DNA of 61,431 nt, counting the filler, from Sphacelaria rigidula (taxonomy: Eukaryota), in NCBI GenBank assembly GCA_964200075.2. It is 11 parts of 11 records of this genome, joined end to end, with 100 filler letters (N's around TTAATTAATTAA, not from the genome) between each part and the next. Parts side by side here need not be neighbours in the genome. Positions count along the whole stretch, not along the records: positions 27,972 to 33,465 come from CAXNAA020026872.1; 10 more parts are not named here. One strand, given 5' to 3'. How positions within the stretch are numbered: position 1 is the stretch's first letter; each line of letters starts with the position of its first letter. The position numbers and the translations under genes are program-made. Under the pieces are notes generated by a model. The model was not told the DNA's origin. It did not search any database and saw nothing but the letters and a program-made list of their open reading frames with translations. Positions 5,496-56,263 of this stretch are shown in pieces.

Positions 5496-5595
5496 NNNNN
5501 NNNNNNNNNNNNNNNNNNNNNNNNNNNNNNNNNNNNNNNTTAATTAATTAANNNNNNNNNNNNNNNNNNNNNNNNNNNNNNNNNNNNNNNNNNNN
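5496..5595. other. Artificial 100-nt contig spacer (N run + TTAATTAATTAA + N run); first of 10 identical spacers
   Basis: The same spacer occurs at 5496, 11090, 16684, 22278, 27872, 33466, 39060, 44653, 50246 and 55839. The intervening contigs are 5495, 5494 (x6) and 5493 (x4) bp, i.e. size-sorted. TTAATTAATTAA places stop codons in all six frames. Confidence 0.97.
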
Positions 5596-9533: not shown

Positions 9534-11853
9534 CTGGGACGACACAAGATGCAGATGGAAAGCATTTAAAGAGCAAGCGCAGCGACCCGAAACGCAGGTC
9601 AGCGCACCTGAGATCAGAAAAACGAGAATTACACTCTGGTTTGCGGGGGTCTTTGCCCGGCAGGACGTGACACGTCTTCCGAAGCGCGTCATGTTAGGAC
9701 TTTAGCCGCGCAGGGTCCCGGAAACCTGGCTAGCCGCCCCCCCCGAACGCTGGAGCGACCGCCTCGAGGAGGAACGGCGTGCACTGGGGGTTCTCCCACG
9801 AAGGAGAACGACGGAAAGGGTTCGCCCACGGTATGGATGGAGGTCAAGGACCCACACGATTGGGTCATAACGACGAAGGCCATGGGCAAATGGCATCTAA
9901 GAGGCGAGGGAGGGGTGGGAGAGTTCGAGGTAATGTGGCGACGCGAAGATAAAACCCGCTTGGACCTTCGATACAAGTACTTGAGGCTGCTGCGTCGAGA
10001 GCAGTATATCGGGGTGCCGCCAACGCTGACGCAACAACAGCAACAGCTCGCGAGGAATCTAGGATGGAAATGGTCGACAGTGTCCCGCTTTGAATCCGAC
10101 AAGGGATGAGTGGGGGAAGCTGGGTAAACGCAGAAACTGAAGTAGCCTGGTCTTCTGTTATCGGCCACCGACTTCTTCTTTGGCTTGTGATCTTGCGGTG
10201 TTCCTAATTGTGCTCCTGTACATGCTCACTCGATGGTGCTGGAAAAAGTGAGGAGCGACTCTGAGCCGGCTCAGCAATCATTTACGGGCATACGAGTGGT
10301 ACCGGTCCACGACCAAGCCGCTGCGCTCCGATGGCCTAATGGTACAACTTACATCATTAGGTCGGGAAAATGTGAACTCGATTCCCGAAAAATGTGTTCG
10401 GATTTCTTTCGAATGATATCTAATTTCCGTCAGACCACGGACTCGTTTACAGGACGGGAAGGGGTTAAAAAGTGAGGGGAAAAAAATACAAGAACATGAC
10501 GTCAGTGGTCATTTCTCAAGGACAAAGTTGGAGAAACTCGGACAGACAGGGACGCCTCCGAGTCGAACTATAGCCCATCCTAACGGGATCAAATGATGAA
10601 GCCAAGAGCGAAGCAGACGTCCAACAGCATCATGTTGATTGGTCGCCATAACAGCGCGACATCGGCGCGGCGACCAACTAACATGCTGCTGTTTTTGAAC
10701 GATCGCTTCGCTATTCGCTTCTTCCTTTGGTCCCGTTAAACCTTTTGGGACTGAAGCGCAGTAACGGAGGGATTCACCTATAATGGTGAAATAATAATAA
10801 ACAAGTCTGGGGGCGACCTGCCCAATCAGGGCGAAGCAAAATCTATCGACCACATCCGAACGACCAGTGGAATGGGGCTATCGCCGGGAGTGACATCACT
10901 GCCAAGTTGGTGTACCCTGTCTGGCCCACAAAAAAGCCTTCGAAGCAAAAGAAAGCCCAAGTGGTCGGGGCTCGGTTTCCTGATTTTCCATCATTTACCT
11001 GCATTTTATATCTCAACCTCCTCCCCCCCCCCCCCCCCCCCACCTCATCTTCCTCATCCCTCTGTCTTATCACCTACCTCTTTCACAACNNNNNNNNNNN
11101 NNNNNNNNNNNNNNNNNNNNNNNNNNNNNNNNNTTAATTAATTAANNNNNNNNNNNNNNNNNNNNNNNNNNNNNNNNNNNNNNNNNNNNCGTCTCGAAAG
11201 GGATGCGTGGTCAATGGCCAAACGACTAAGGCAAACAACAAGTGAGTACCCCCTCCCCACTCCTCCCCCCTAACCTCTATCTCATCCTCGGGACAAGCTC
11301 GTACTTCCGAGTATTCAATCCATCTCTCCTTCCGTAGGTACCCGATATTTTTTTTGTATCGAGCATGGTAATAGGATCAGCAGTCTTCTAGCCTGCTGGC
11401 ATCCCTTCCATCCTTGTTCTGCTGCTCACGCTCTCACGCTTTCGATGGCGGCAACTAAGTCCTGGATCAGAAAGACCCTTCATGTCAAGACGCGTTCTCC
11501 CGAATTACCCCCAAACTGATCAGCGTCGTACCTCTTGGACCCGTGGCATGCGGCGGCGCCTGTACTTACATGAGACCCTTCCAACCGTCCCGAAGCCATG
11601 CCCGCCGCGCTGATGTTTCATGATCCATGAGTTTTTTTTTTCCCGTTTCCACGTGTCGGTTCCCCCTTGCCCGTCCCCAAATCTCGGCACTGCCGGCCTC
11701 AATCCACTCGGAGCAACTTTCTCACGCGCCGCAGCGGTTCATACAGGAATCAGCCGCCGGTGGTGTATATAATGCCGACGACGTTGCTTCCTGCGCGCAA
11801 GTATCTCACCATTTGCCACATCTGTTGTGCAACACAATGCTCTTCATTGTCAG

Positions 11854-15900: not shown

Positions 15901-17408
15901 GACGTCAGAAAACTAGTCGTTCTTCTTGAGGAGTCAGGGTTGAATCGTGGAGCAGCCCGCGCCGGCGTCGCCTTGTGGCACAACGTCGCTTGAGCAATGC
16001 GATGACAGTGACGCGTCGGTCTCACAGCTTCGGGTACTCCGAGTCGTGGTCGGGAGGGTGCGTGTTTTGCGATCAGAGGAAGACAGCCGATTGTACAGTC
16101 TACGGCGTTGGATTCAGGCGTTCTTGCTCCAATCTTGAATCCGGTCGGTGTCCATCTCCGTTTCCGAGCGGCAAATTGCAGGTCCGGCAACGGTCTGATG
16201 TTGTCTCCGCATGATGCCGTGTTCGTTGGATCTTCGTGAGGCCTGGCACACAAGAGACCTGTATGCATCGTTGGATCTTCCGGGTCTTCGGGCCAACCAA
16301 CAGAGGGGCTACCCTCTTCTGGCCGTTGGGTTTCGGCCTTCTTTGGCTGGTAGTAGTTTTACCGAAAATGTTTATGGTTGTGACTGCTCGGCGTAACTGG
16401 TGCTGAGACGGCGGTATGATCACCATTTAACAAAAAAGGGTCACCACTTGACAGAAAAGGAACAACAGTAGAACAAAAAAAGGTTAACACAATTTTTTTT
16501 ATCAGAGGGCAGGGTGTACTCTCCTGTTATTCTGACAAAAAGGGTACTCTCACAGGCCCTCATTTTCGGCGCGGTAGTTCGGCCCAGTAACACTTGTGAA
16601 AGTGAAAAAAACCGGTCGGGTATGCTGCCCAGACACCTTGGGCGTGGGGCTGGGGCGCTGGAACGTGTTTTCGAGGTGTTCAGNNNNNNNNNNNNNNNNN
16701 NNNNNNNNNNNNNNNNNNNNNNNNNNNTTAATTAATTAANNNNNNNNNNNNNNNNNNNNNNNNNNNNNNNNNNNNNNNNNNNNCCCCCGCCCCTCTCCCC
16801 CCGCGCTCTATCCTGGGGTGGCTCACCGTTTCATTGGTGTGTACCCTTACTTCGCACCCCATCTCGATGAATATGCATGGAGTATTCGGGTGCCGTTGTA
16901 GACCATAGAACCAGCGCTGGCAGGTACACTAGCTGTAGATACCATCATTGTCCAATCGCTTTTACTAAGAACCTGACTCATGTAGTGTAATGTAGTGAAT
17001 GGTGCAATGCCTCGCTCGATTCAGGCCCATGTCTTCGGTGTTTTATGTAGAACTTACCAGGTGACCATGGCAAAGCGAGTGAGTGGTGGTGCGACTGACG
17101 TGTGGTGACCATGTCGCTGACACAACAGGAACAAGACTCTTGTGTGTGAAGGTGAAAAAATCAGCTTTGTTCTCCTGTACAGGACCGATCATCACACTGT
17201 GGAGCAATTATCTTTGTCAAACTTCCTGAGGTATACATCAAAATAAATGTTCCGAAATTTACGTCACAATCACCACCACCATCACCTCAGCAGCTTTGCT
17301 TGGTGAGGTTTAATTCAATATCCAGGCAATACTTTCGATGCAGGTGAGAGCATGCTCAAGATTGTAGCATCATCCACCGTCTGCGTTGTCTTCATCCGAC
17401 ATCCGCAG

Positions 17409-22277: not shown

Positions 22278-25200
22278 NNNNNNNNNNNNNNNNNNNNNNN
22301 NNNNNNNNNNNNNNNNNNNNNTTAATTAATTAANNNNNNNNNNNNNNNNNNNNNNNNNNNNNNNNNNNNNNNNNNNNCCCCAAACCCCCACACCCCACCC
22401 CCCCCCACACGCCCCCCCCACGCACCCCCCCCCCCCCCCCCCCCCCCCCCCTCCCTCCCTCCCCTCCCCCTCCCAAGGGAAAAATGAAACAAAAACAAAC
22501 TTATGCGAACAACAACAACAGCTCCAACATGTCATCAAGTCATCATCGCTCCCACCGTGCGAAACAAAATACACTATGTGGGCCTTGTCATCATCCACGA
22601 TCATGTGCGCTCGAAAAGGGTAAACGCAAATCGCCGGTTTTAGGGTGCCCAACGAAGCCACAACTGCAACAGCTTAGCCGGCGGCCGGCCGACCACAAGC
22701 GGGAACGACATGACAGGCAAACGGGACTAGAAGGGACTGGAAACGATCGCCATCATCAGGCGGCGAGATTCCATCACCGCCGTCACCGCTCCCCGCCCGA
22801 TGTTTCCTCGGATATTCCACCCGCTGTCCTTACAAATCACGGATAGCATCGAGCAACAGTCTACGGTCGCCTCTTCTCTCCCGCGCACCCTACGCTCCAC
22901 CCTCCATGACGGAGTTTAGCGCTCGAAGGTCTGAATTTCCCCCCCACCCTCTCCCCTCGGGTTGTCTGATGATGAAACGAAATGATCAGCAGCATGATTT
23001 TTGCATCCCATCCCAGACCCGAATATTTAGCCCACATAACTTTTAGCAGTTGGGAGGCGCACCCACCACGCACAGGTAGCTGTACCCGGCAAAACGCGCC
23101 ATACAGACCACCGCCGCCCCGGGTTCCGGCCGGTAGGGTAACGACCAGACGAATGCAAACCCGAAGCAAAACATGACAACACCAAACGGGCAGCCAGGAC
23201 CCCCAAACAATCATGAAACAGCTGCCACGACCCAAAACACCAGAACAACGTAACAGATAGACAGACAGACAAGTATTAGATGAGGAAAACAAAACCACAC
23301 GTCCTCCGAAAACAATCGATACCTACCACACATCACTCATACAACCATTTCTCGTACTATCGCAACAGCGCATTCAACCCCCCGCGGGATGGTTCCCCGC
23401 CACATTCCCCTCTCGTGAACCTCTCAGCCCGCGCGTCGAAATTGATAGTATTACATATTCGGGACATTGACGCGGCACAGCCATACTGGAACAAGCACAT
23501 CATGATCCCGCGATCGAAACAGTCGCCCCGTCCCCCACACCACCATCAGAAGGATCCCATAGGATCCATTACCGCCGTGTTTTCTCCGTACCGCCGGCAA
23601 ACAAGCAGCACCACCTGCAGCGCTGTACACGAACTAGGAGCAAAACAACCGTCGACAAAACCAGCGATCTAACCTCGACTATTTCCAAAAACACTCAGCC
23701 AAAGTCCTCCACGCCCGCCTACGCTCCGTGGCCCCACGTACGGCCCTGCCACACCGACGAATAATGCCTCCTCACGAACGCTCTCGCAGAGATCGCTCTC
23801 ATGAGCTACTTCCTATAGAGAGAAGTACGTCGGCCGTGCGGGGGTTCACACTTCAGCAGAACACGAGGCGGAGAAAAGTCATCCTCCAGGTGTATCAACG
23901 ATCCGCTACACGCGAGGGCGGAGTGTGAGTGTGTACCAAATCACTATCTCTGTGCTTGTGAGCCCCTGGAAGGCGACGTGCTTTCCTCCTTTGCACCAGT
24001 CCGAGATTTCTCCGCCTGGCTCACGAGATCCAAGACTTGTCGCAGCTTTCCTGTCTGCACCAACCACTCCTGGCATAAACAAAACAGGAACAGTTTGGAA
24101 GGGGGAATGAGACGGGACGTGGGTTCGTTATACTGATGACGAGATACCCTCACCCCTCCCCCCCCTAGAAAAATGGGTCACGACTCGACCGAGTCATCGC
24201 CGGTTCGAATCACCACATCCCCGATGTTTCAGGCCTGATTGCTCGAAAGAGAGAAAACGTTGACCGGGTCTTCCCTCGCCAAAAAGCGGTCCATGCTTCG
24301 GATACCTACACCCTCCACCCGGATCACAAAACGTGCCAAAGCACCGCCCAACAAGCCAGTTTCTTCCACCAGGCACTTGTCGGTTGGATTCCTCCTTGTA
24401 ATCATCCCCAAAGCGTTCCATTGGTGCGCTCGCATGATTACCTACTACTCGTCCACAGGAAAATACACCATGTCTTGACCAAGCACTGCCGGTGGAATGT
24501 GCCTCGAGTCACCTTGACATATCTTGTCCATGTCTTGCTGCATGAGGTAACCCTTTGATAGGCAAAACCTGGAACTAGTCGATTTTCACTGGAGAATGAC
24601 ATATTCCGCTGACTAACCCGAAGTGACCCCCCACCTTTCCCTCTTGAGGGTTGGCGTCGGTTGGCAGCGACGCTGTAAAACACGCCACTCACTGCGCAAG
24701 CTAGGCAACCAGGTTACCCTCGTCGTGCTCGCCGGCGGGCACAGCACACGTTCTTCACCAAACCATCGGCACTGGAGACGGTCGACTCAAGCTTTGCAAC
24801 AGAACACTCTCGCACAGGAAACACCTTGTGAACCGCCACCCACTCCCGAAAGACCTCGGGTCGGCCTTGGATTGAAGCTTGAGATGCGGCTTTGGGTTGA
24901 GGTTTCAGCAACAACAATTGTCGCGCTCCGCCACTCGAGCCCGTACAAACTGCAATCAGTCACTGTTATACTGTAGGGGAAAAGACTGCGTGTCGTTCAA
25001 AATCCAAAAGATATATACATGCGTTAAGCTTGATTTTTTTTCTTTTGTTCCGAGATGTATCTGAGTTGTGTCGATGAAAAGGTGAGAACGTGAGAACGTT
25101 AAGAGCATTTTTTTTCTTCTTCTTCTCTTTTTGCTGACGACAGGCGACATGGTACGAGGAGTATTGTAGTGAATTTCCTCCGCGACACTAATCAAGATGT

Positions 25201-27871: not shown

Positions 27872-28492
27872 NNNNNNNNNNNNNNNNNNNNNNNNNNNNN
27901 NNNNNNNNNNNNNNNTTAATTAATTAANNNNNNNNNNNNNNNNNNNNNNNNNNNNNNNNNNNNNNNNNNNNCCTATCAAAACGCTGCGACGGGTACAGAT
28001 TTTGCATTTCACTGTCAGGGTTTTTTCACAAAGACTGTGGAGGACCCTGTACGGACCCTGCACAGTGCGCCCCACAGGGTGCTATCTGTCCACGTGTGTA
28101 GAGTCATAGTGTGCACTCGAAATTGACGGCTGCGTCCCACCTGCGTTGGCAGGCGCTGGTACAGGTGATGAGGCTGATGCAGCTGGTTGGACGTTATCCG
28201 CAGTCACATGTACACTACTGTTGTCACTCGTGACGAGGTTCTGTTGTGCTTTGAGGTCCGGGGTGCATTGTGTTCGTATGGGGGGCGACTTCCCACATTG
28301 GGCACATCAAAACTTTGATTGCACAACTTGCACATAGATATGAAACGCTTCACACTGCCAGATGACAGTTTTGAAATCGGTTAAGAGGGTAAGGCAGGTA
28401 ACCGGTACCGGTATTTGGGACATGTAATACCCTACCGATACTGACCCAATCGGGTATTTCCTCATGCCATACCTACGATACCTGCGATACCG

Positions 28493-28662
28493 CGGTATTC
28501 CGAGATTTCAGTACCTACCGTACCCGCCGAACCCGATATTTTCGAATGTCACACCTACAATATCTACGACACCACGGTATTTCGAGATTTCAATACCTAT
28601 CGAACCGTCAAATCCGATATTTTCAAAACTCATACCTACAATACCTACGCATACCACGGTAT
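28493..28662. repeat. 82-bp tandem repeat (2 copies) inside a TACC-rich dispersed element (~28390-28740)
   Basis: cggtat occurs at 28493, 28575 and 28657, with conserved cgagatttcaRtaccta..ccgatattttc..acctacaata in both units. Confidence 0.8.
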
Positions 28663-28904
28663 GGGATACCCCGGTAAATACCGGGGGTACGCTCGGTATG
28701 GTACCTCACCTACGGTGCCTGCGGTGGGTGCGTATTCTCCAGAGTATGTGAACCATAACGCGGCCATTTATTCTTCAAAACGTTTCAACTGGCTTTCGCC
28801 TATGGCTCACGAGATGTTCCCGTTGTCTTGGTATATGTGCTATGATGAGCAGTACGGGTTTGGATCAGCGCCACCGAAGAAGCTGACGGCAGACGTCGCG
28901 AGGA

Positions 28905-31403
28905 AACGTGAATCAACAAGCGCTGCTCCAAGCCACCATCTCAAGGTTCACAGGGCTACAAGGCGGGGTTTCGCTCCGACTACGTCAGGACCGTCATGTT
29001 GAATGTGAAGAGACGGCTGTGTAATGACGGGGGCTGCTCGAAGAGGCCGTCGTATGGGGTTGCGGGAAGCACGAAAGCCGAGTTTTGCTTGAAGCATGCC
29101 ATGAGGGGAATGGTGAATGTGAAGAACAGGAAGTGCGGCTACGAGGGCTGCTCCACGCGGCCGTCGTATGGGGTAGCGGGAACGACGAATGCGGAGTTCT
29201 GTTCCAAGCATGCCAGGACGGAAATGGGGAATGTGATGAACAAGAAGTGCGGCCACGAGTGCTGCTCCACCCAGCCGACGTATGGAGAGTCGGGAAGCAA
29301 GAAGGCGGAGTTCTGTTTCGAGCATGCCAGGAAGGGAATGATGAATGTGAGGAGCAAGAAGTGCGGCCACGAGGGCTGCTCCACCCGGCCAAAGTATGGA
29401 GTGTCGGCGAACAAGATGGCGGAGTTCTGTTCCAAGCATGCCAGGACGGGAATGTTGAACGTGGTGGACAAGAAGTGCGGCTACCAGGGGTGCTCCATGT
29501 TGCCGTCCTTTGGTGTGACGGGAAGCAAAAAGGCGGAGTTTTTCTCCAAGTATGTCAGGACGGGAATGGTGAATGTTGTACACAAGAAGTGCGGCCACGA
29601 GGGCGCTGCTCCACGCAGCCGACGTATGGTGTGGCGGGAAGCACAAATGCGGAATTCTGCTCCAAGCATGCCAGGATAGAAATGGTGAACATGGTGATTA
29701 AGAAGTGCTGCTGCGAGGGCTGTTCCTCGAATCCGTTGTATGCTATAGCGGGAGGCAATACGGCAATGTTCTGCTTCAAGCATGCCGAGAATGGGATGGT
29801 GTACGTAGGGAAAAATAAGTGCGGCTACGAGGGGTGCTCCACGATGCCATCGTTTGGTGTGGCGGGAAGCACGAAGGCGGAGTTCTGCTCCAAGCATGCC
29901 AGGGCAGGAATGATGAATGTAAGGAAAACGCCGTGCAGCTACGAGGGCTGCTCCTCGCATCCGTCGTATGGGGTTGCGGCAAGCACGAAAGCCGAGTTTT
30001 GCTCGAAGCATGCCACGATGGGAATGGTAAATGTGAAGAACAAGAAGCGCGGCCACGAGGGCTGCTCCACATGGCCGTCGTATGGGGTAGCGGGAACGAC
30101 GAATGCGGGGTTCTGTTCCAAGCATGCCAGGACGGGAATGGGGAATGTGGTGAACAGGAAGTGCGGCCACGAGTGCTGCTCCACCCAGCCGACGTATGGA
30201 GAGTCAGGAAGCAAGAAGGTGGAGTTCTGATTCAAGCATGCCAGGACGAGAATGGTGAGAGTGAGGAAAAAGAAATGCGGCCACGAGGGCTGCTCCTTGC
30301 ATCCCTCGTATGGTGTAGCGGGAAGCAAAAAGGCGGAGTTCTGTTCCAAGCATGCCAGGACGGGAATGGTGAATTTGAAGAAGATGCCGTGCAGCTACGA
30401 GGTCTGCTCCTCGCATCCGACATATGGGTTAGCGGGAAGCACGAAGCCAGAGTTCTGTTTCAAGCATGCCAGCACGGGAATGGTGAATGTTGTACACAAA
30501 AAGTGCGGCCACGAGGGCTGCTCCACGCGCCCGTCGTGTGGGGAAGCGGGAGGGGGAAACGCGAAGTTCTGTTCCAACCATGCCAGGACGGGAATGGTGA
30601 ATGTGTTGAACACGAAGTGCGGCTCTGATAGCTGCCCCTCGCATACCTCGTATGGTGTGGCGGAGAGCAAAAAGGCGGAGTCCTGTTCCAAGCATGCCAG
30701 GACGGGAATGGTGAATTTGAAGAAGATGCCGTGCAGCTACGAGGGCTCCTCAACGCATCCGACATATGGGGTAGCGGGAAGCACGAAGCCAGAGTTCTGT
30801 TTCAAGCATGCAAGGATGCCAGCGATGTTCGACACCACGGAACCTAACACTGGAGAGGGCTCCGGCGACAGTAGCCCGACGGAGGGTGGTGGAGCAAGCG
30901 TTGCTAGTGTACGAGGGGCGAAGCGCAAGCAGCAAGCAACCGTTGCTTTGTTTGGATCCGTTGTGAACGATGTTGGCGCTCCCCGTAGTATGTGCATCGG
31001 TTCTAGGCAGGGTGCGAGAACGCCATTGCTTTCGGGGAGCTCACCTTTGCTTTCGGGATACTCACTTTCAAGGGCTGAGGGTGGGGCATCTTTGAGAGCA
31101 AGAGCAGGAGCAGGATTGAAAGTGGAGCTGGCAGCCCCTTCTCCTACACACGATGGCGATGGGGTGTGGGCGTGGCGCGGGCAGGCTGCCCGTTCAAGCG
31201 TTTGGAGCAGCGAACATGGTCGTGGCGGCTTCATTAGCAGTGGTGGTGGGAGAACGGGACGGCTCTGTGGCTCGCTTCAAGTGGTACCTGGAGACCTGGG
31301 CGCATGTGATGATGTTGCGTTTGAAGGGGCAAAGGAGGACTTGGACGTGAAGTTCGAGCTCGGGGTATCTAGTCCTTCTCTTCGGACGTCCGACACATGT
31401 TAG
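28905..31403 (+). pseudogene. EsV-1-7 cysteine-rich repeat protein: 16 tandem 38-aa C-x4-C-x16-C-x2-H repeats (plus one degenerate upstream repeat) and a low-complexity C-terminus; frameshift and nonsense codon
   Basis: 114-bp periodicity from ~29017 to 30820; consensus CGHEGCSTxPSYGVAGSKKAEFCSKHARTGMVNVxxKK. A 2-nt insertion at 29605-29606 (gagggcGCtgctcc) shifts the frame from ORF 28996 to ORF 29085. TGA replaces the conserved Cys at 30228-30230, and the same frame continues as ORF 30252-31403. Confidence 0.92.
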
Positions 31404-33565
31404 ATGGCACCATTCTTCCCACCGATGTCATTGCTCAGGTTAAGGGAGAGTGTGTTAATGTGTACTCGGTGATGTTGATAACGCAAACGGCAATTGGTCG
31501 GCTCGGCTTCCTCTTTTCTATTAATGCGAAGCAGTTTGTGAGATTTATGGAGTCCTGGTAACAGGGATTTCGTCAGATTGAGAGTCTGACGTTCGATTGA
31601 GATGAGAACCCAAGGAGTAGCAAATCTTATTCAACTCATCGACTGATGTTGGGGAATACGTTCTGCGCCGAGGCAGGCAAGACGTAGCTCGAATAATCGC
31701 TCCTGGCCCTAGCGTGTATTCTGATTTCATTAGCATCATCAACCAGCGGAAATCTGAAACTCTAGATTTCGGGCAATGGTTGATTTATACCAGAAACAGT
31801 TTCAGTTCTGAAATGCCCGTCCGGGCTGCATACGCTCTCTGTACTAGCTCGCAGCTGAAGCCTCTGATATCCTCGAAACGGATCGTATCGTGGAGCTACA
31901 AGCACACCATATTGTCACCAGCATAATGCGCACACGAGTATTGGTCACGTCGGAGCGAATGATAGGCTTGAACTTTGATCAGCGCTTGACCCGATCTGGC
32001 GAAACCCTGTTACATCCCAGCACCACATTCCACCGGAGACCGAGGCGCCGTTGTCGTACTTGTGTCAACCATGTCCTTCAACGGCAGGGTGCCAAGAGCT
32101 GGCCGAGAGTGATGCGCACAGTAGTAGTCGGCAACTCGACGAACTGTAAGCGCACTGTTTGACTTGTATTGTGTATTTGTTCCCAACCTTTTTTACTGAT
32201 GGTGCAATGTGTGTCCCAATATTTGTTTTTCTTCAGCATTTTTTGTACCCCGAACAGGAGCACTTGCCGCGTGTTTCATATCGTACGGAACCCCAAGACG
32301 GAGAGATGGGTTTGCCACAGTATGGGGGTGCCAGATGGTATACCAGTCCTCCTGCAGTATTTGAAGAGACACATGTTCTGAATGTGGGATATGGGAGGAC
32401 ATCATGATGCCACCTCACACCTGTGGTCCAACTGTTACACGTTATGAACCGACTATAGCAGGTTTGGGGATTCGAATCCATCTTCCTCCATCATAGATGA
32501 GTGGACGAGGAGACTTGAAGACAAGTGAGCACAGTTAGGGGTGCGAATCGGGGGGGGGGTGTTAGCCTCGAACTTTGTCAGGCTGTTCGACGGAATTCAA
32601 TCGACCATAGACAAGTCATCCTCGTTTCCTTTCTTCCATGTCCATACACTTGATTAAACACATCGTTGGAACGAGCAAAACGTGCGTTAAAGCGACTTCC
32701 TCCCTGTTCAGACGCTACATACACGTCCACACTCCTGACACACACTGTACGATGACCTCCTTCCTTCTCAACTCTTGTAGCGTTCGCTGAAACTCTGCAA
32801 AACAAATACTTTTACTTTTTTCCACCTGGTGTGCCGAGCGTGGGACATTCCCGGAAAGCGAAGTCATCACAACATGCACTGTGAGTTGAAGCACACAACC
32901 AAGCGTACATCAGGATTGGAAATGACGAATCCCAACGCCCTACGAACCTCCTTTTTGGGCCCGATTTTTCAAACAAAAACACGTAAATTTCTTTTGAATT
33001 TTTATGTTGCCGCCATGTGCCGCGTTCGTCTCGAGACTTGATCTTGATGTGCCAAACACGTTCGTGCGCTGGAAGGCGACATTAACAGTGTGTTTCCGCG
33101 ATGAATAAACGTGTAGGGGGACAGCGGGGTGGGCGGGTGGAGGGGTAGTATCGCGCTGACCCGAGTCACTTTCGACGAACGCAGTCGAACATTTTTCGCC
33201 GGGGATTCGTGCCACTTAATTGCAACCCATCTTGCACTCGCATTCATGTTTGAAGGCGCAAGCAGCAAGCGTGTTTCGCGACATATGCGTAGCAGTCTTC
33301 TTGTGCGGACCGCCGTGGAGGTTACGGTTGCTACAACCGAGCCGAAACTCGTCTGACCCGCGGTCACTTTCGAATGTAGTAATCGCAGTCGACATTGGTA
33401 TGGAGCGTGCGAGCCTCGGTGTAAACCGCTGCATAATTATGTTGATCATCAGGAGACGCTCATTGNNNNNNNNNNNNNNNNNNNNNNNNNNNNNNNNNNN
33501 NNNNNNNNNTTAATTAATTAANNNNNNNNNNNNNNNNNNNNNNNNNNNNNNNNNNNNNNNNNNNN

Positions 33566-39015: not shown

Positions 39016-39644
39016 GAGGCAGTGTATAAGCCGTGGCTGTCTCTGGAAGCGGCGATACCNNNNNNNNNNNNNNNNNNNNNNNNNNNNNNNNNNNNNNNNN
39101 NNNTTAATTAATTAANNNNNNNNNNNNNNNNNNNNNNNNNNNNNNNNNNNNNNNNNNNNTTGATGAGATGATGTAACTGACGCAATTTTGGATATTTCCC
39201 CATATTTTCCCTGTGTCATGTCGAGCCTCAATTCTCGGTGAGGCTCGATATTTGAAATTGTTCCGCGATAGGTGCGAGCTGAAGTTGGATGGCGCAGCGA
39301 ACCGGCAACGAGCGCATCCCCCGTTGCATGGACCTCTCGGTGGACATCGGTGGAAAGAGCAAATAATACTCCACGATGCCGACGCCCCCTCATAGCCGTA
39401 GCCCGAAACGAGGGGGGCAGGAGAGAGACGCAAACCGTTTGAAAGCAAAACAATGAGGGGGGGGGACGCAGGATGTGTTGTCATGTTGTGCTTTGACTGC
39501 GCGTGTTAAAACCAGTTGAGCAAAAACTTTCGCTCTGCCGGTTCGCTGTGCGCTAAGTAGAATTCTGGTTGATTGACAGTAGTGTCGAGAATTTTTGCTA
39601 CGCCGGATCACGATGTAAGAGTTGCATGGTGTTTGACCGAAATA

Positions 39645-39955
39645 CATTCCCTGTTTTTCTGTTCGGAAGATTCATCTTTCGAATATTTGAAAATGAGGCA
39701 TGTGCACCTGATGATGCGCACGCTGTACTTCGAAAAGTGAGCGTGAGGGTTTCTCTGTTTTTCTGTTTGAAAGGTTGATATCTCGGAGTTTGGAAATAGG
39801 GCGGGTGCACTTGATGATGCGAACGCTGTACTTCGAAAGATGAGCGTGAGGATTTCTCTGTTCTTCCGTTTGAAAGGTTGATATCTCGGAGTTTTGAAAA
39901 ATAGGGTATGTGCACTTGATGATGCGCACGCTGTACTGGAAGATATGCGTGAGGG
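39645..39955. repeat. Tandem repeat, 3 x ~104 bp
   Basis: gcacYtgatgatgcgMacgctgtact at 39704, 39807 and 39912; tttgaaaggttgatatctcggagttt occurs twice. Confidence 0.9.
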
Positions 39956-43179: not shown

Positions 43180-44752
43180 CACCACACTAGCCCATCCTAG
43201 ACGAGTCCTTATGCAGTTGAATTACATCACCTCGGCACAATATAATTGCGCCGAGGAATTTCATAATTCAACGAGAAAGGATTATTCTACACTACACTTG
43301 TACAAAAGAATGAAGCGAAGAAAAAGTGATCACTCTCCCACACCTCTAAGAGGCGAGTATCGCTGCGATCCCACAGCATTAAACGTTCAATCCACAAAAG
43401 AGAAAATGTATCTACGTGACACTCACGCATCTATGTTGAAGAAGACAACAAACACGCAAGTCCATCTACAAAGTTAAGCACCAAATGGTACGCACGCGTA
43501 GACTTCATCTACAAACGGAACAAGGATGGAATGCCAGACAATCCGGGAAGAGGGGAGGGAAAACGCAGTTGCGGCATAGCATCGCGGCAACTGCTCTGGT
43601 CGGACGCAGATCCAAGTGAGCTCCACGTCTTTGTTCGACTCCGTCCCGACACATCCGTCGCGTATAGCGAGAGTGGCACCCCGCTCGTTTCCGTGGCAGG
43701 GCGTTTGAAGTATCAAACCTGCCTTGCAAAAGGCGTGCAGCGTGAAGTACAATGCGATGGGGGGGGGGATACTACGCAGCAACAGGGAGATAAAGTTGGG
43801 GGTGCAGCCGAAGTTCACGGTCGGTGTGCACGAAGTGCGGAGTCAAAATCCTGCGGGGGTGGGCACTAGTCCATCCAAGACGACACTCGGGGTAAAAAGC
43901 CAAATGTCGTCGGTCAGAACTTTTCGTTCAGCGCGGCGGATCAACTATCGCGTGTGATGAGCAAGACTTGGTGTCAATTTAAAAAAAACAATTCGTTAGG
44001 ACGCAATACCCAACTCAAAGCAATCGTCCGGCGGAAATACGGCCTACAACAAGGGCGGTAAGATTGATCATTCCCAGGGGAACACTGGACCACGAGCAAC
44101 GGAACGACACAAGAGAACACACCCGTGTCGCCAGCTGACCAGGCTGCGCCACGGGATAGGGGTAGAACAAACAAACGAACACGTCCAGATGAGTTGTCGA
44201 AATGCAGTAGCTCACTTCAACCTGAAACAGTCGTCGGGCATAAATACAGCCTACAACAAGGGCGGTATCATTAGCAGTACACGGTGTAACCAAGGACCCG
44301 TGCAACAAGACGATGTTAGGGAATACTCCCGTGCAGCGAACTCTCTTGGCTGGTGGCAGGGGGTTGAGCAGTGACAACAAAAAACACACCCAGAGAACTA
44401 GTCATCAAAGTTCCAAACATGCGGGGGGTGGACTAAATTTATCTACAGTCCTCTCATCGCGTAAAGAAACCTCGAAGGCAAGAAAAAAACACTAGATGCT
44501 CAGGGGACACGGACAAAGATGCCACAGCGACAAGAAAGGCGACTACGGGTACTAGAAACAGTCACCAAGAAGGCGAACTCAGCACAAAGAAACACGGCAC
44601 CAAAACCTGTGGGGGGGCTACAATGCGGCAAAGGGGAGGGGGGGGGGGCTATNNNNNNNNNNNNNNNNNNNNNNNNNNNNNNNNNNNNNNNNNNNNTTAA
44701 TTAATTAANNNNNNNNNNNNNNNNNNNNNNNNNNNNNNNNNNNNNNNNNNNN

Positions 44753-50245: not shown

Positions 50246-50345
50246 NNNNNNNNNNNNNNNNNNNNNNNNNNNNNNNNNNNNNNNNNNNNTTAATTAATTA
50301 ANNNNNNNNNNNNNNNNNNNNNNNNNNNNNNNNNNNNNNNNNNNN

Positions 50346-51845: not shown

Positions 51846-52038
51846 TACATTTCAACCTCTTTTCTCTGCACCGAGTGCAGAAGAAGCAGGATATACTTTT
51901 GACTGAAACAGAAGTAAACATGCTTGACGGTCGGCTTCGCTTCGATCACCATGAGCTGTCTTTATCACAAAGGGCCATTCGATAACCGTCAACATACCGA
52001 AACCCCCCACTTGCCGTGTCAGCTGTAGATCTTACTTT

Positions 52039-52330
52039 CCCTCCCCCAAGCATTCTATTCCAGTCCGTTCCTCCGGTGAACGTTGTGAATTCAAGTGTTG
52101 GCGTCCAGTCCGCTTCACCCGCAAGCGTTGTTAGTGCCCCTCCCCCAAGCGTTCGATTCCAGTCCGTTCCTCCGGTGAACGTCGTGACTTCAAGTGTTGG
52201 CGTACAGTCCGCTTCACCCGCAAGCGTTGTTACTTCCCCTCCCCCAAGCGTTCGATTCCAGCCCGTTCCACCAGCGAACGTAGTGACTTCAAGTGTTGGC
52301 GTACAGTCCGCTTCCCCTGGAAGCGTTGTA
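52039..52330 (+). repeat. 3 x 99-bp tandem repeat (33 aa, PPPSVRFQSVPPVNVVTSSVGVQSASPASVV) between copia protease and integrase
   Basis: tcccccaagc at 52042, 52141 and 52240. Confidence 0.92.
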
Positions 52331-55300: not shown

Positions 55301-56263
55301 TTTGGGGTATGTTAGGCGAACAAGTTCGCTGGGGATTTCTTTTCGCAGAGGAAGTATGCAGGGGCTGAGCTTTCATGTGTTTGCATATGCCGACTACGCA
55401 AGTAAGACAGCTGATAGGCGGTCGGTATCAGGAGGGCTAGTGATGTGTGGAGATGGATGTGTGTCTTGGTTTTCAAGGACGCAGAAGTGTGTGACGCTGT
55501 CCACAACGGAAGCTGAGTACGTTTCCATGACAGATATTCTGATGGAGGTATTGTTTGTGAGACAGGTTTGGCGTTTCATGTTGCCGCAGGTGGGAATGCC
55601 ATGCATCCCGGTGTTTGAGGATAATCAGGGAGCTATTCAGCAGGCAAAGAACCCAATCACGAACTCCAACTCCGAGTACATCGACGTACGGCATCATTTT
55701 ATCAGAGAGTTGGTTGGGAGGAATGAGGTTTCGGTTATTCACGTGAGATCGGAGTATCAACATAACAACAAATTGTGCGAATTGAGGTTTAACTTTGAGA
55801 TGAGGTTCAAGCATAAAACAGTGCTTTCCTCACACTTTNNNNNNNNNNNNNNNNNNNNNNNNNNNNNNNNNNNNNNNNNNNNTTAATTAATTAANNNNNN
55901 NNNNNNNNNNNNNNNNNNNNNNNNNNNNNNNNNNNNNNGACACAATCCCGGGGAGCGGTTGATTCTCATTTCAAAACACGTTCTCATTTTTCTGGCAACC
56001 CTGTTCTTTGCGTTTTCCGTAGGTCACAATTTCGTTTTTTGCCAAACATTCATTTTCAATAGCAAACGGGCAGTTGAGTTATCAAAAACCTAACTTGTTT
56101 TAAAGTGCTTTTTCGACCCTTCTCCGTCGTTTTTGCCCCGAAAAGAACACCCGCCGTATTCACGCCAGCGCTGGCCACAAACAAGAATCTGCCAGCAGTC
56201 TAAAACCAGTGCCACATCAAATTTGTGCAGACCCGCCGGTCCTACCAACACCATTTTCCAATC

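Follow-up and report, generated by a model that had tools for sequence, protein, structure and literature searches.

The DNA considered here, referred to as the window, is a stretch of 61,431 nucleotides from the brown alga Sphacelaria rigidula (assembly GCA_964200075.2). It contains, wholly on one contig (CAXNAA020026872.1, window 27972-33465, identical to G000:C26872), a gene of the EsV-1-7 family that encodes an array of 16 repeats followed by a C-terminal tail. The array (29017..30809, + strand) is made of 38-amino acid repeats of the form C-x4-C-x16-C-x2-H-x12, which were recognized by Tandem Repeats Finder (TRF), Pfam and inspection of the frame segments. TRF reports 29027-30816 with a period of 114, 15.7 copies and a 76% match, that is, 16 contiguous 114-nucleotide units from 29017. 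Pfam family PF19114 (EsV_1_7_cys) matches the three frame segments at E values of 6e-65, 3e-71 and 6e-63, or 209-235 bits per segment for a gathering cut-off of 25. These two results confirm the 16 contiguous repeats that an earlier note had read from the sequence alone. The repeats start at 29017, 29131, 29245, 29359, 29473, 29587, 29703, 29817, 29931, 30045, 30159, 30273, 30387, 30501, 30615 and 30729, the sixteenth stopping at its His (30809). If the first Cys of a repeat is numbered column 2, the residue pair preceding the Pro, on which the earlier note concentrated, occupies columns 9-10; its listing of the sixteen pairs (KR, TR, TQ, TR, ML, TQ, SN, TM, SH, TW, TQ, LH, SH, TR, SH, TH) is exact. 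A degenerate 'repeat 0' (28912..29016, +) precedes the array, and the start codon is probably ATG 28996-28998, whose Met lies within it, as judged from the sequence; an upstream exon may also exist.

The array is not an intact reading frame, something at which the earlier note merely hinted in speaking of a 'repaired or intact paralogue'. Two extra bases (29603..29604, +) change the frame in repeat 6, and the first frame stops at TAG 29677-29679. They are missing from all contigs across the site in four of four sequencing runs; these contigs may derive from paralogues since their depth (72-240) exceeds that of single-copy sequence, and the frame change may itself be an assembly error. A premature TGA (30228..30230, +) lies at the third zinc-ligand Cys of repeat 11. 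It is real, since contigs of runs X1 (30176-30328) and X6 (30158-30326), from two studies, span it without differences. The predicted product would have 227 amino acids with the frame change and 410 without it, the tail being lost in both cases. All 16 repeats are in register, and the C-x4-C-x16-C-x2-H pattern is canonical in 11 of them (for 52 intact paralogues the figure is 788 of 833 internal slots); a Cys/His ligand has been lost by substitution in repeats 5, 10 and 16. Read from its sequence, then, this copy is disabled and cannot give rise to a full-length protein, and the locus itself is an ordinary decaying member of its family. The array also bears the mark of block duplication, repeats 2-3 and 10-11 being 94% identical at the DNA level.

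Beyond the stop lies a low-complexity C-terminal tail (30810..31403, +, ending at TAG 31401-31403) that is common to the subfamily; 153 of its 190 amino acids are identical to those of the tail of L032, the closest paralogue among the sampled loci (see below). It carries a basic KRKQ cluster (30921..30932, +) and two psi-K-x-E motifs, LKVE (31116..31127, +) and VKFE (31347..31358, +). We take KRKQ and the related KRKR to be of the nuclear-localisation signal (NLS)-like class, and psi-K-x-E to be the SUMO-acceptor consensus. A KR[KNTD][RHQL] cluster, KRKR being its type, is found in 47 of 49 paralogue tails (shuffled mean 1.5; tails of at least 150 amino acids), and at least two psi-K-x-E motifs are present in the last 150 amino acids of 40 of the 49 (shuffled mean 0.04, maximum 1). 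Among the relatives from elsewhere that lack a nuclease domain (see below), 30 of 57 have a motif of this kind (shuffled mean 6.7, maximum 14); those that can be named as having a KRKR/psi-K-x-E tail are Sphacelaria, Pylaiella and Cladosiphon proteins. The tail alone, used as a query, found no match among proteins of 594-1890 amino acids.

EsV-1-7 is the largest orthogroup in brown algae, has viral affinity and contains no other Pfam domain (10.64898/2026.04.27.720984). Published counts are 95-335 genes per genome, in tandem clusters. One member is the Ectocarpus developmental regulator IMM (IMMEDIATE UPRIGHT), whose orthologues are recognized by a five-repeat N-terminal domain unique to IMM. 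A role of EsV-1-7 proteins as zinc-finger transcription factors has already been put forward in print as a hypothesis (PMC12629598), and an Ectocarpus Tc1/mariner transposase has an N-terminal EsV-1-7 domain (PMC12477816). The domain is described only as a possible or hypothesised zinc finger, with no function assigned, in the portions of the sources on which we draw (further ones are PMC7457493, PMC12993054 and 10.64898/2026.06.18.732790). A literature search conducted mostly outside subscription journals returned nothing on a ligand, a fingerprint or a nuclease fusion of EsV-1-7 repeats. The present gene has the same 38-residue C-x4-C-x16-C-x2-H repeat as the rest of PF19114, including IMM and the phaeovirus proteins EsV-1-7 and EsV-1-115, and likewise belongs to a large host family. 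Unlike the family generally, this copy is broken and falls into a long-array subfamily with a KRKR/psi-K-x-E tail; the gene has a short N-terminus and an N-terminal array of 16 repeats.

A search of the genome gives at least 251 matches, and 56 loci were taken from the 150 listed, a sample biased to similarity. All 56 sampled contigs carry canonical repeats (848 altogether), and 52 arrays are uninterrupted, with a median of 14 canonical repeats (range 3-37). L032 is intact and 88% identical in DNA to the present copy, the two arrays differing by block duplications and deletions of repeats. One locus, L064 (G000:C5360), has at least 37 canonical repeats in an open frame of 1474 amino acids that runs off the contig. 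Five others (L044, L057, L054, L040 and L041) are nearly homopolymeric, columns 9-10 repeating TR, TL or TK (mostly TR in L044 and mostly TL in L054); such arrays could target simple repeats and would be suited to the reading of a per-repeat code.

The pair before the Pro had been described as hypervariable and as the one variable site of each repeat. Column 10 deserves the description: no other column of the window array is as variable (entropy 2.48 bits), and across the 836 repeats at 55 other loci its value rises to 3.16 bits. In that set column 9 attains 2.02 bits (T 55%, K 26%), and a single site per repeat is contradicted by column 37 (3.20 bits) and column 36 (2.49 bits). Within arrays (652 in-register repeats of 49 intact genes), the ratio of replacement to synonymous differences, pN/pS, is 1.64 at column 10, 1.42 at column 37 and 1.17 at column 36, compared with 0.71 at column 9 and no more than 0.88 at the remaining columns; at column 10 it exceeds 1 in 45 of the 49 genes. 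Disjoint close pairs with a held-out synonymous rate yield 1.59, 1.54, 1.34 and 0.77 for columns 10, 37, 36 and 9, and the Nei-Gojobori method (NG86) ranks the columns in the same way. Codon position 2 of column 10 differs at a rate of 0.497 versus 0.243 for four-fold sites (an excess seen in 45 of the 49 genes, the difference having a bootstrap interval of 0.20-0.31). The four-fold rate is likewise exceeded at columns 36 and 37, while the per-nucleotide difference at column 9 is 0.294, with a bootstrap interval that spans 0. The entropy and replacement-rate check that the earlier note recommended thus singles out column 10, with columns 36-37 varying about as much. Because column 9 is not diversifying and columns 36-37 are, the variable site is one residue with partners in the linker rather than a pair. 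Column 10 is R, Q, H, N or K in 471 of the 652 repeats, hydrophobic in 147 and acidic in 4; the mean net charge of these repeats is +3.2, in keeping with the basic character noticed earlier.

The fold was modelled with AlphaFold2 on four repeats of the window and 125 paralogue segments. The four-repeat model (predicted local distance difference test, pLDDT, 70; predicted template modelling score, pTM, 0.35) has no helix of four or more residues and only short strands, at columns 13-15, 23 and 32-34. The same strand pattern recurs at a pLDDT of ~95 in a relative whose alignment was more diverse. Predicted viral relatives match the model at a root-mean-square deviation (rmsd) of 5-11 Å over four repeats; they include the phaeovirus EsV-1-7 protein and EsV-1-115 (Q8QNQ2, Q8QNG4), and the structure-matched set also holds proteins named 'Endonuclease' from Faunusvirus, cedratvirus and pithovirus. 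Searches of the Protein Data Bank (PDB) by sequence with the repeats gave no match, and a profile search with the nuclease-bearing relatives gave a single chance match. Comparison of the model with PDB structures gave nothing significant (best Z 2.2, best Foldseek E 2.1), which says nothing on the novelty of the fold. The model fits a series of independent zinc/beta modules on a string, each with a C3H site.

This bears on the resemblance to transcription activator-like (TAL) effectors and pentatricopeptide repeat (PPR) proteins that the earlier note had in mind. Both are helical-hairpin solenoids that read one nucleotide per repeat, and like the present array they are built of near-identical repeats, set end to end, in which polar residues vary at fixed columns. 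Unlike them, the EsV-1-7 repeat appears to be a zinc/beta module, and four or more of its columns are candidates for specificity. Its unit is 38 residues long with strands at 13-15 and 32-34, in place of the 33-35-residue helical hairpin of a TAL effector, and the adjacent di-residue of the latter has no counterpart, given that column 9 is neither diversifying nor position-specific, unlike columns 12, 36 and 37. No PPR family is matched at E <=0.1, nor does the model contain the helices of the 35-residue PPR helix-turn-helix. The TALE/PPR-like form thus lacks support, the prediction showing short beta-strands around a C3H site and no confident arrangement between repeats. The structure prediction that had been suggested, run without nucleic acid, likewise gave no confident regular superhelix, in view of the low pTM and the deviation from the relatives.

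A closer functional parallel would be offered by tandem C2H2 arrays such as those of KRAB zinc-finger proteins and PRDM9, which are zinc beads with a fixed linker, several variable residues, lineage-specific expansion and an effector tail. The likeness extends to turnover as a coding minisatellite. Unlike C2H2 arrays, the EsV-1-7 array has C3H ligands, a unit of 38 rather than 28 residues and no predicted recognition helix, and it is N-terminal. Its ligand spacing does not follow the C-x2-4-C-x12-H-x3-5-H of the C2H2 finger, Pfam gives no zf-C2H2 or KRAB match, no KRAB or SET domain was found, and homology to C2H2 arrays is not supported by any test. The parallel would therefore be one of mode of action.

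Relatives outside the alga suggest a link to DNA. A protein search of the whole library finds 5934 relatives at E <=0.001. In 114 of the 191 retrieved, the repeats are followed by a Cys ribbon and a conserved C-terminal domain (KE..DK..C..RPD..ExDExQH..RyNPD). The best structural match of the model of this domain (pLDDT 89) is Vsr (1cw0; Z 9.6, rmsd 5.0, 125 residues aligned), followed by I-Bth0305I (3r3p; Z 8.6, rmsd 3.3, 95 aligned); a DUF559-type protein (3hrl) has Z 7.9. Foldseek lists PD-(D/E)XK nucleases, and the Atlas leads, PvuRts1I-like and DUF559, are under 0.9. UniProt already names some viral EsV-1-7 members endonucleases. In I-Bth0305I, DNA-binding repeats at the N-terminus precede a Vsr-like nuclease domain at the C-terminus (PMC3239194), the order seen in the viral relatives, which appear to be of the same Vsr-like EDxHD type. 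Unlike I-Bth0305I, they carry 2-13 EsV-1-7 zinc modules in place of two NUMODs. VSR-like homing endonucleases have also been described within mirusvirus introns (PMC12768974); unlike intron or intein homing endonucleases, the viral genes considered here stand free beside giant-virus core genes. Unlike its viral relatives, the algal gene has no nuclease domain, and a search with a single viral query did not find this domain in the algal genome.

In IMG/VR, 550 of 607 pattern matches encode a relative. The best 80 of the 550, a choice biased to similarity, yield 64 distinct free-standing genes with an array of 2-13 repeats and a Vsr-like domain. A pattern match to PD..ExDExxH, a possible counterpart of D196/H213/D222 of I-Bth0305I, is kept in 62 of them. 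A major capsid gene adjoins 22 of the 64, across several separate nuclease clades, and 7 more adjoin genes for PolB, RPB2, RPB3/11 or poly(A) polymerase. Counted by open reading frames (ORFs) from the nuclease gene, capsid genes account for 21 of 108 ORFs at offset 1 and for none of 100 at offset 2. The nuclease gene is present at 12 of the 73 related capsid loci for which sufficient flanking sequence is available; these are scattered on the tree and require 7 parsimony changes. Where it is present the gene lies between a small ORF and the capsid gene, which are close together in empty loci (less than 500 nucleotides apart in 35 of 61); in filled loci, where the small ORF was found in 5 of 12, the distance is 1.5-2.65 kb. 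Free-standing homing endonucleases have this kind of patchy placement beside conserved genes, and the viral genes resemble them in predicted fold and setting, which may point to nuclease activity and homing. Two genes beside viral nucleases contain intein/Hint domains (L108:294-3842 and L158:5602-8184; PolB and an RCC1-repeat protein). Precomputed Pfam annotation also lists fusions of the repeats with other domains (P0159/P0160, P0175, P0191 and P0192: PF03457 with PF10967, PF14223, PF05183 and PF02536), some of which may be gene-model fusions; these accessions are presumably helicase-associated, retrotransposon gag, RNA-dependent RNA polymerase and mTERF domains.

The viral genes also offer a view of the variable columns that is separate from that of the algal paralogues. 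If the arrays read sequence, orthologues that share a target are expected to hold the residues that do the reading constant at a given repeat position, though not from one repeat to the next. The clade adjoining capsid genes, after removal of 4 of 17 members as near-duplicates or truncated, comprises 13 non-redundant orthologues with seven repeats and 57% identity. Its columns tied most closely to repeat position are 12, 37 and 10 (mutual information 1.72, 1.68 and 1.53), column 9 being at background (1.09). Column 10 is R in repeat 2 of all 13 orthologues, column 12 is Q in repeat 4 of 12 of the 13, and column 37 is H in repeats 4-6 of all 13. The algal test had named two columns beforehand, and both would fall by chance among the first three of 21 variable columns with a probability of 0.014. 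In a second orthologue clade (n=5) the top columns are 10, 37, 25 and 12. The residue repertoires of the algal and the nuclease-bearing repeats agree, with R/Q first at column 10 and N/S/H/D at column 37. In two clades, then, the behaviour expected of an array that works like C2H2 fingers is seen, a few columns varying between repeats, being kept in orthologues and diversifying in paralogues.

We therefore propose, with a probability of about 0.6, that the array recognizes specific sequences in double-stranded DNA by means of columns 10, 12, 36 and 37, much as C2H2 fingers do, that viruses add to it a nuclease and the alga a nuclear tail, and that the present copy is disabled. Of the earlier idea, this retains the core, modular nucleic-acid recognition by specificity residues in every repeat, without the TALE/PPR form; the column 10 excess, the tail motifs, the nuclease fusion and the conservation in orthologues all speak for it. 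Each C3H zinc/beta module of 38 residues would be a bead on a flexible basic string laid along the DNA. The sequence read would be set by the residues on either side of the Pro (columns 10 and 12) and by two in the linker (columns 36-37), and retargeting would proceed by shuffling of repeats through block duplication together with substitution at these four columns. In giant viruses the same module would be the targeting part of free-standing genes of the Vsr/EDxHD homing-endonuclease-like type. In the alga a disordered regulatory tail with nuclear-localisation and SUMO-type motifs would stand in place of the nuclease, and the present copy would be a truncated product of birth-and-death turnover in a recently expanded brown-algal subfamily. 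What the data display directly is the sequence with its breaks, the selection statistics, the domain fusion and its fold match, the gene neighbourhood and the position-specific conservation; the binding of zinc and of DNA, localisation to the nucleus, SUMOylation, nuclease activity, homing and the number of bases per repeat are inferred.

Several points weigh against this proposal. The excess at columns 36-37 is modest since four-fold rates differ between columns (0.13-0.37 over 18 columns). The statistics are counting-based rather than from a maximum-likelihood codon model, on related genes with non-independent pairs and gene conversion. Covariation among columns 10, 12, 36 and 37 is weak and inconsistent (z <=2.7 after average product correction). 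There is no position-specific signal in a third cluster (6 proteins with 4-9 repeats) or in a pooled cluster of 43 (2-12 repeats), in both of which register or targets may differ. The literature searched yielded no binding data for EsV-1-7 repeats. As for homing, the 7 parsimony changes are fewer than the shuffled mean of 11.3, the patchy distribution can be due to repeated loss of a vertically inherited gene, and no carrier-specific or co-converted tract was found in the capsid gene.

Nor is the fold of the viral domain unequivocal: the RNA-associated RAP domain of FASTKD4 matches its model with Z 8.0, tied within 1 with I-Bth0305I. This opens the way to an RNA reading, in which the array would recognize RNA or single-stranded DNA, the viral domain would be a RAP-like RNA-processing nuclease and the algal proteins would be nuclear RNA regulators. 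The C3H ligand set is that of CCCH fingers, PPR, PUF and OPR-RAP proteins provide precedents, and the long arrays (with the median of 14 and maximum of 37 canonical repeats given above) would suit long RNA targets. In PPR proteins two distant columns vary jointly, and the joint variation of columns 10 and 37 resembles this logic. We nevertheless regard RNA as an improbable ligand: the viral domain is closest in fold to Vsr, a DNA nickase; the patchy occurrence of free-standing genes beside conserved core genes fits DNA homing; and a DNA transposase carries the repeat domain at its N-terminus. Slightly less credible is the notion that the array is a coding minisatellite in which relaxed constraint, codon bias and unequal crossing-over suffice to explain the variation at column 10 and in the linker, with no per-repeat code and with any nucleic-acid binding non-specific and electrostatic. 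The common codons of column 10 are mostly one step from CAG, block duplications build the arrays, many of which are single-residue runs (TL, TR, TK), and this copy is itself in decay. Relaxation limits replacement change to the neutral rate and is thus insufficient on its own for column 10, the value of which (0.497) tops every measured four-fold column (maximum 0.37). In addition, the one-step neighbours Pro and Glu are avoided there, and viral orthologues preserve these same columns position by position but not other surface columns.

We give similarly little credence to a role in protein recognition, with the algal arrays serving as pathogen-sensing repeats akin to leucine-rich repeat or tetratricopeptide immune receptors, or as decoys for viral EsV-1-7 proteins, the diversifying columns making up a surface for protein contact. 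Diversifying selection is typical of expanded tandem-repeat immune receptors, the repeats are shared with viruses of brown algae, and nearly a quarter of column 10 residues (147 of 652) are hydrophobic. The basic charge, the exclusion of acidic residues, the nuclease and transposase fusions and the tail with its NLS and psi-K-x-E motifs point instead to nucleic acid in the nucleus, and these genes have no signalling domain according to Pfam and to Lotharukpong et al. Least probable of all is the strict TALE-like superhelix, with a di-residue at columns 9-10 reading one base per repeat. It would account for contiguous repeats of equal length and for a variable column 10 rich in R/Q/H/N/K under apparent diversifying selection. 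It does not accommodate a column 9 that is neither diversifying nor position-specific when columns 12, 36 and 37 are, a model without helical hairpin or confident superhelix, or an inter-repeat geometry that differs among the predicted relatives.

If double-stranded DNA is indeed the ligand, the EsV-1-7 array would add one more independent origin of modular DNA recognition, held in common by giant viruses and algae, and would be a candidate scaffold for protein-only targeting. A wider scenario, which we advance only tentatively and rather doubt, is that of an independent programmable DNA-reading zinc module, its fingerprint (columns 10, 12, 36 and 37) open to decoding, used by viruses as a natural zinc-finger nuclease homing beside core genes, and domesticated by algae as hundreds of nuclear regulators with the role that KRAB zinc-finger proteins have in vertebrates. 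The lineage has little DNA methylation, and the targets of such regulators might include transposons or integrated viruses. The four candidate specificity residues are named and can be mutated, and the cut sites of the nuclease fusions would report the target of the array; this opens a direct test of the function of the largest brown-algal gene family. The viral array-nuclease family (L087-L166 and L167-L245 in IMG/VR) deserves a study of its own as natural zinc-finger nucleases.

Upstream of the gene lies a high-copy repeated element (28402..28721), recognized by TRF and contig depth, which is MITE- or satellite-like (MITE: miniature inverted-repeat transposable element). It includes 82-bp tandem units (28464-28662, TRF), has a contig depth of 7e4-4e5 versus ~26 for single-copy sequence, and has loose ends at 28402 and 28721. 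It is matched at 87% in L032 and three other loci, so that it adjoins 4 of 55 paralogue loci. It must be older than the duplication since the closest paralogue has it upstream too. The element was considered as the cause of inactivation and ruled out, because L032 has it and is intact.

The window is a string of ~5.5-kb contigs with an artificial N44-TTAATTAATTAA-N44 spacer at each junction. Those at 27872..27971 and 33466..33565 set the left and right limits of the real context of the gene, and because the spacers join unlinked contigs the DNA outside 27972-33465 provides no genomic context for it. The others are at 5496-5595, 11090-11189, 16684-16783, 22278-22377, 39060-39159, 44653-44752, 50246-50345 and 55839-55938. 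Four other long ORFs in the window have no Pfam match. Two further tandem repeats lie on different contigs, at 39647-39937 (103-bp x 2.8) and 52032-52329 (99-bp x 3.0); the long ORFs overlapping them have no Pfam match as far as they were examined. Finally, run X6, which is only guessed to be RNA and comes from one study, covers the gene with exact contigs at low depth but not the unique flanks 28733-28843 and 31508-31700, an observation that is not used here as evidence.

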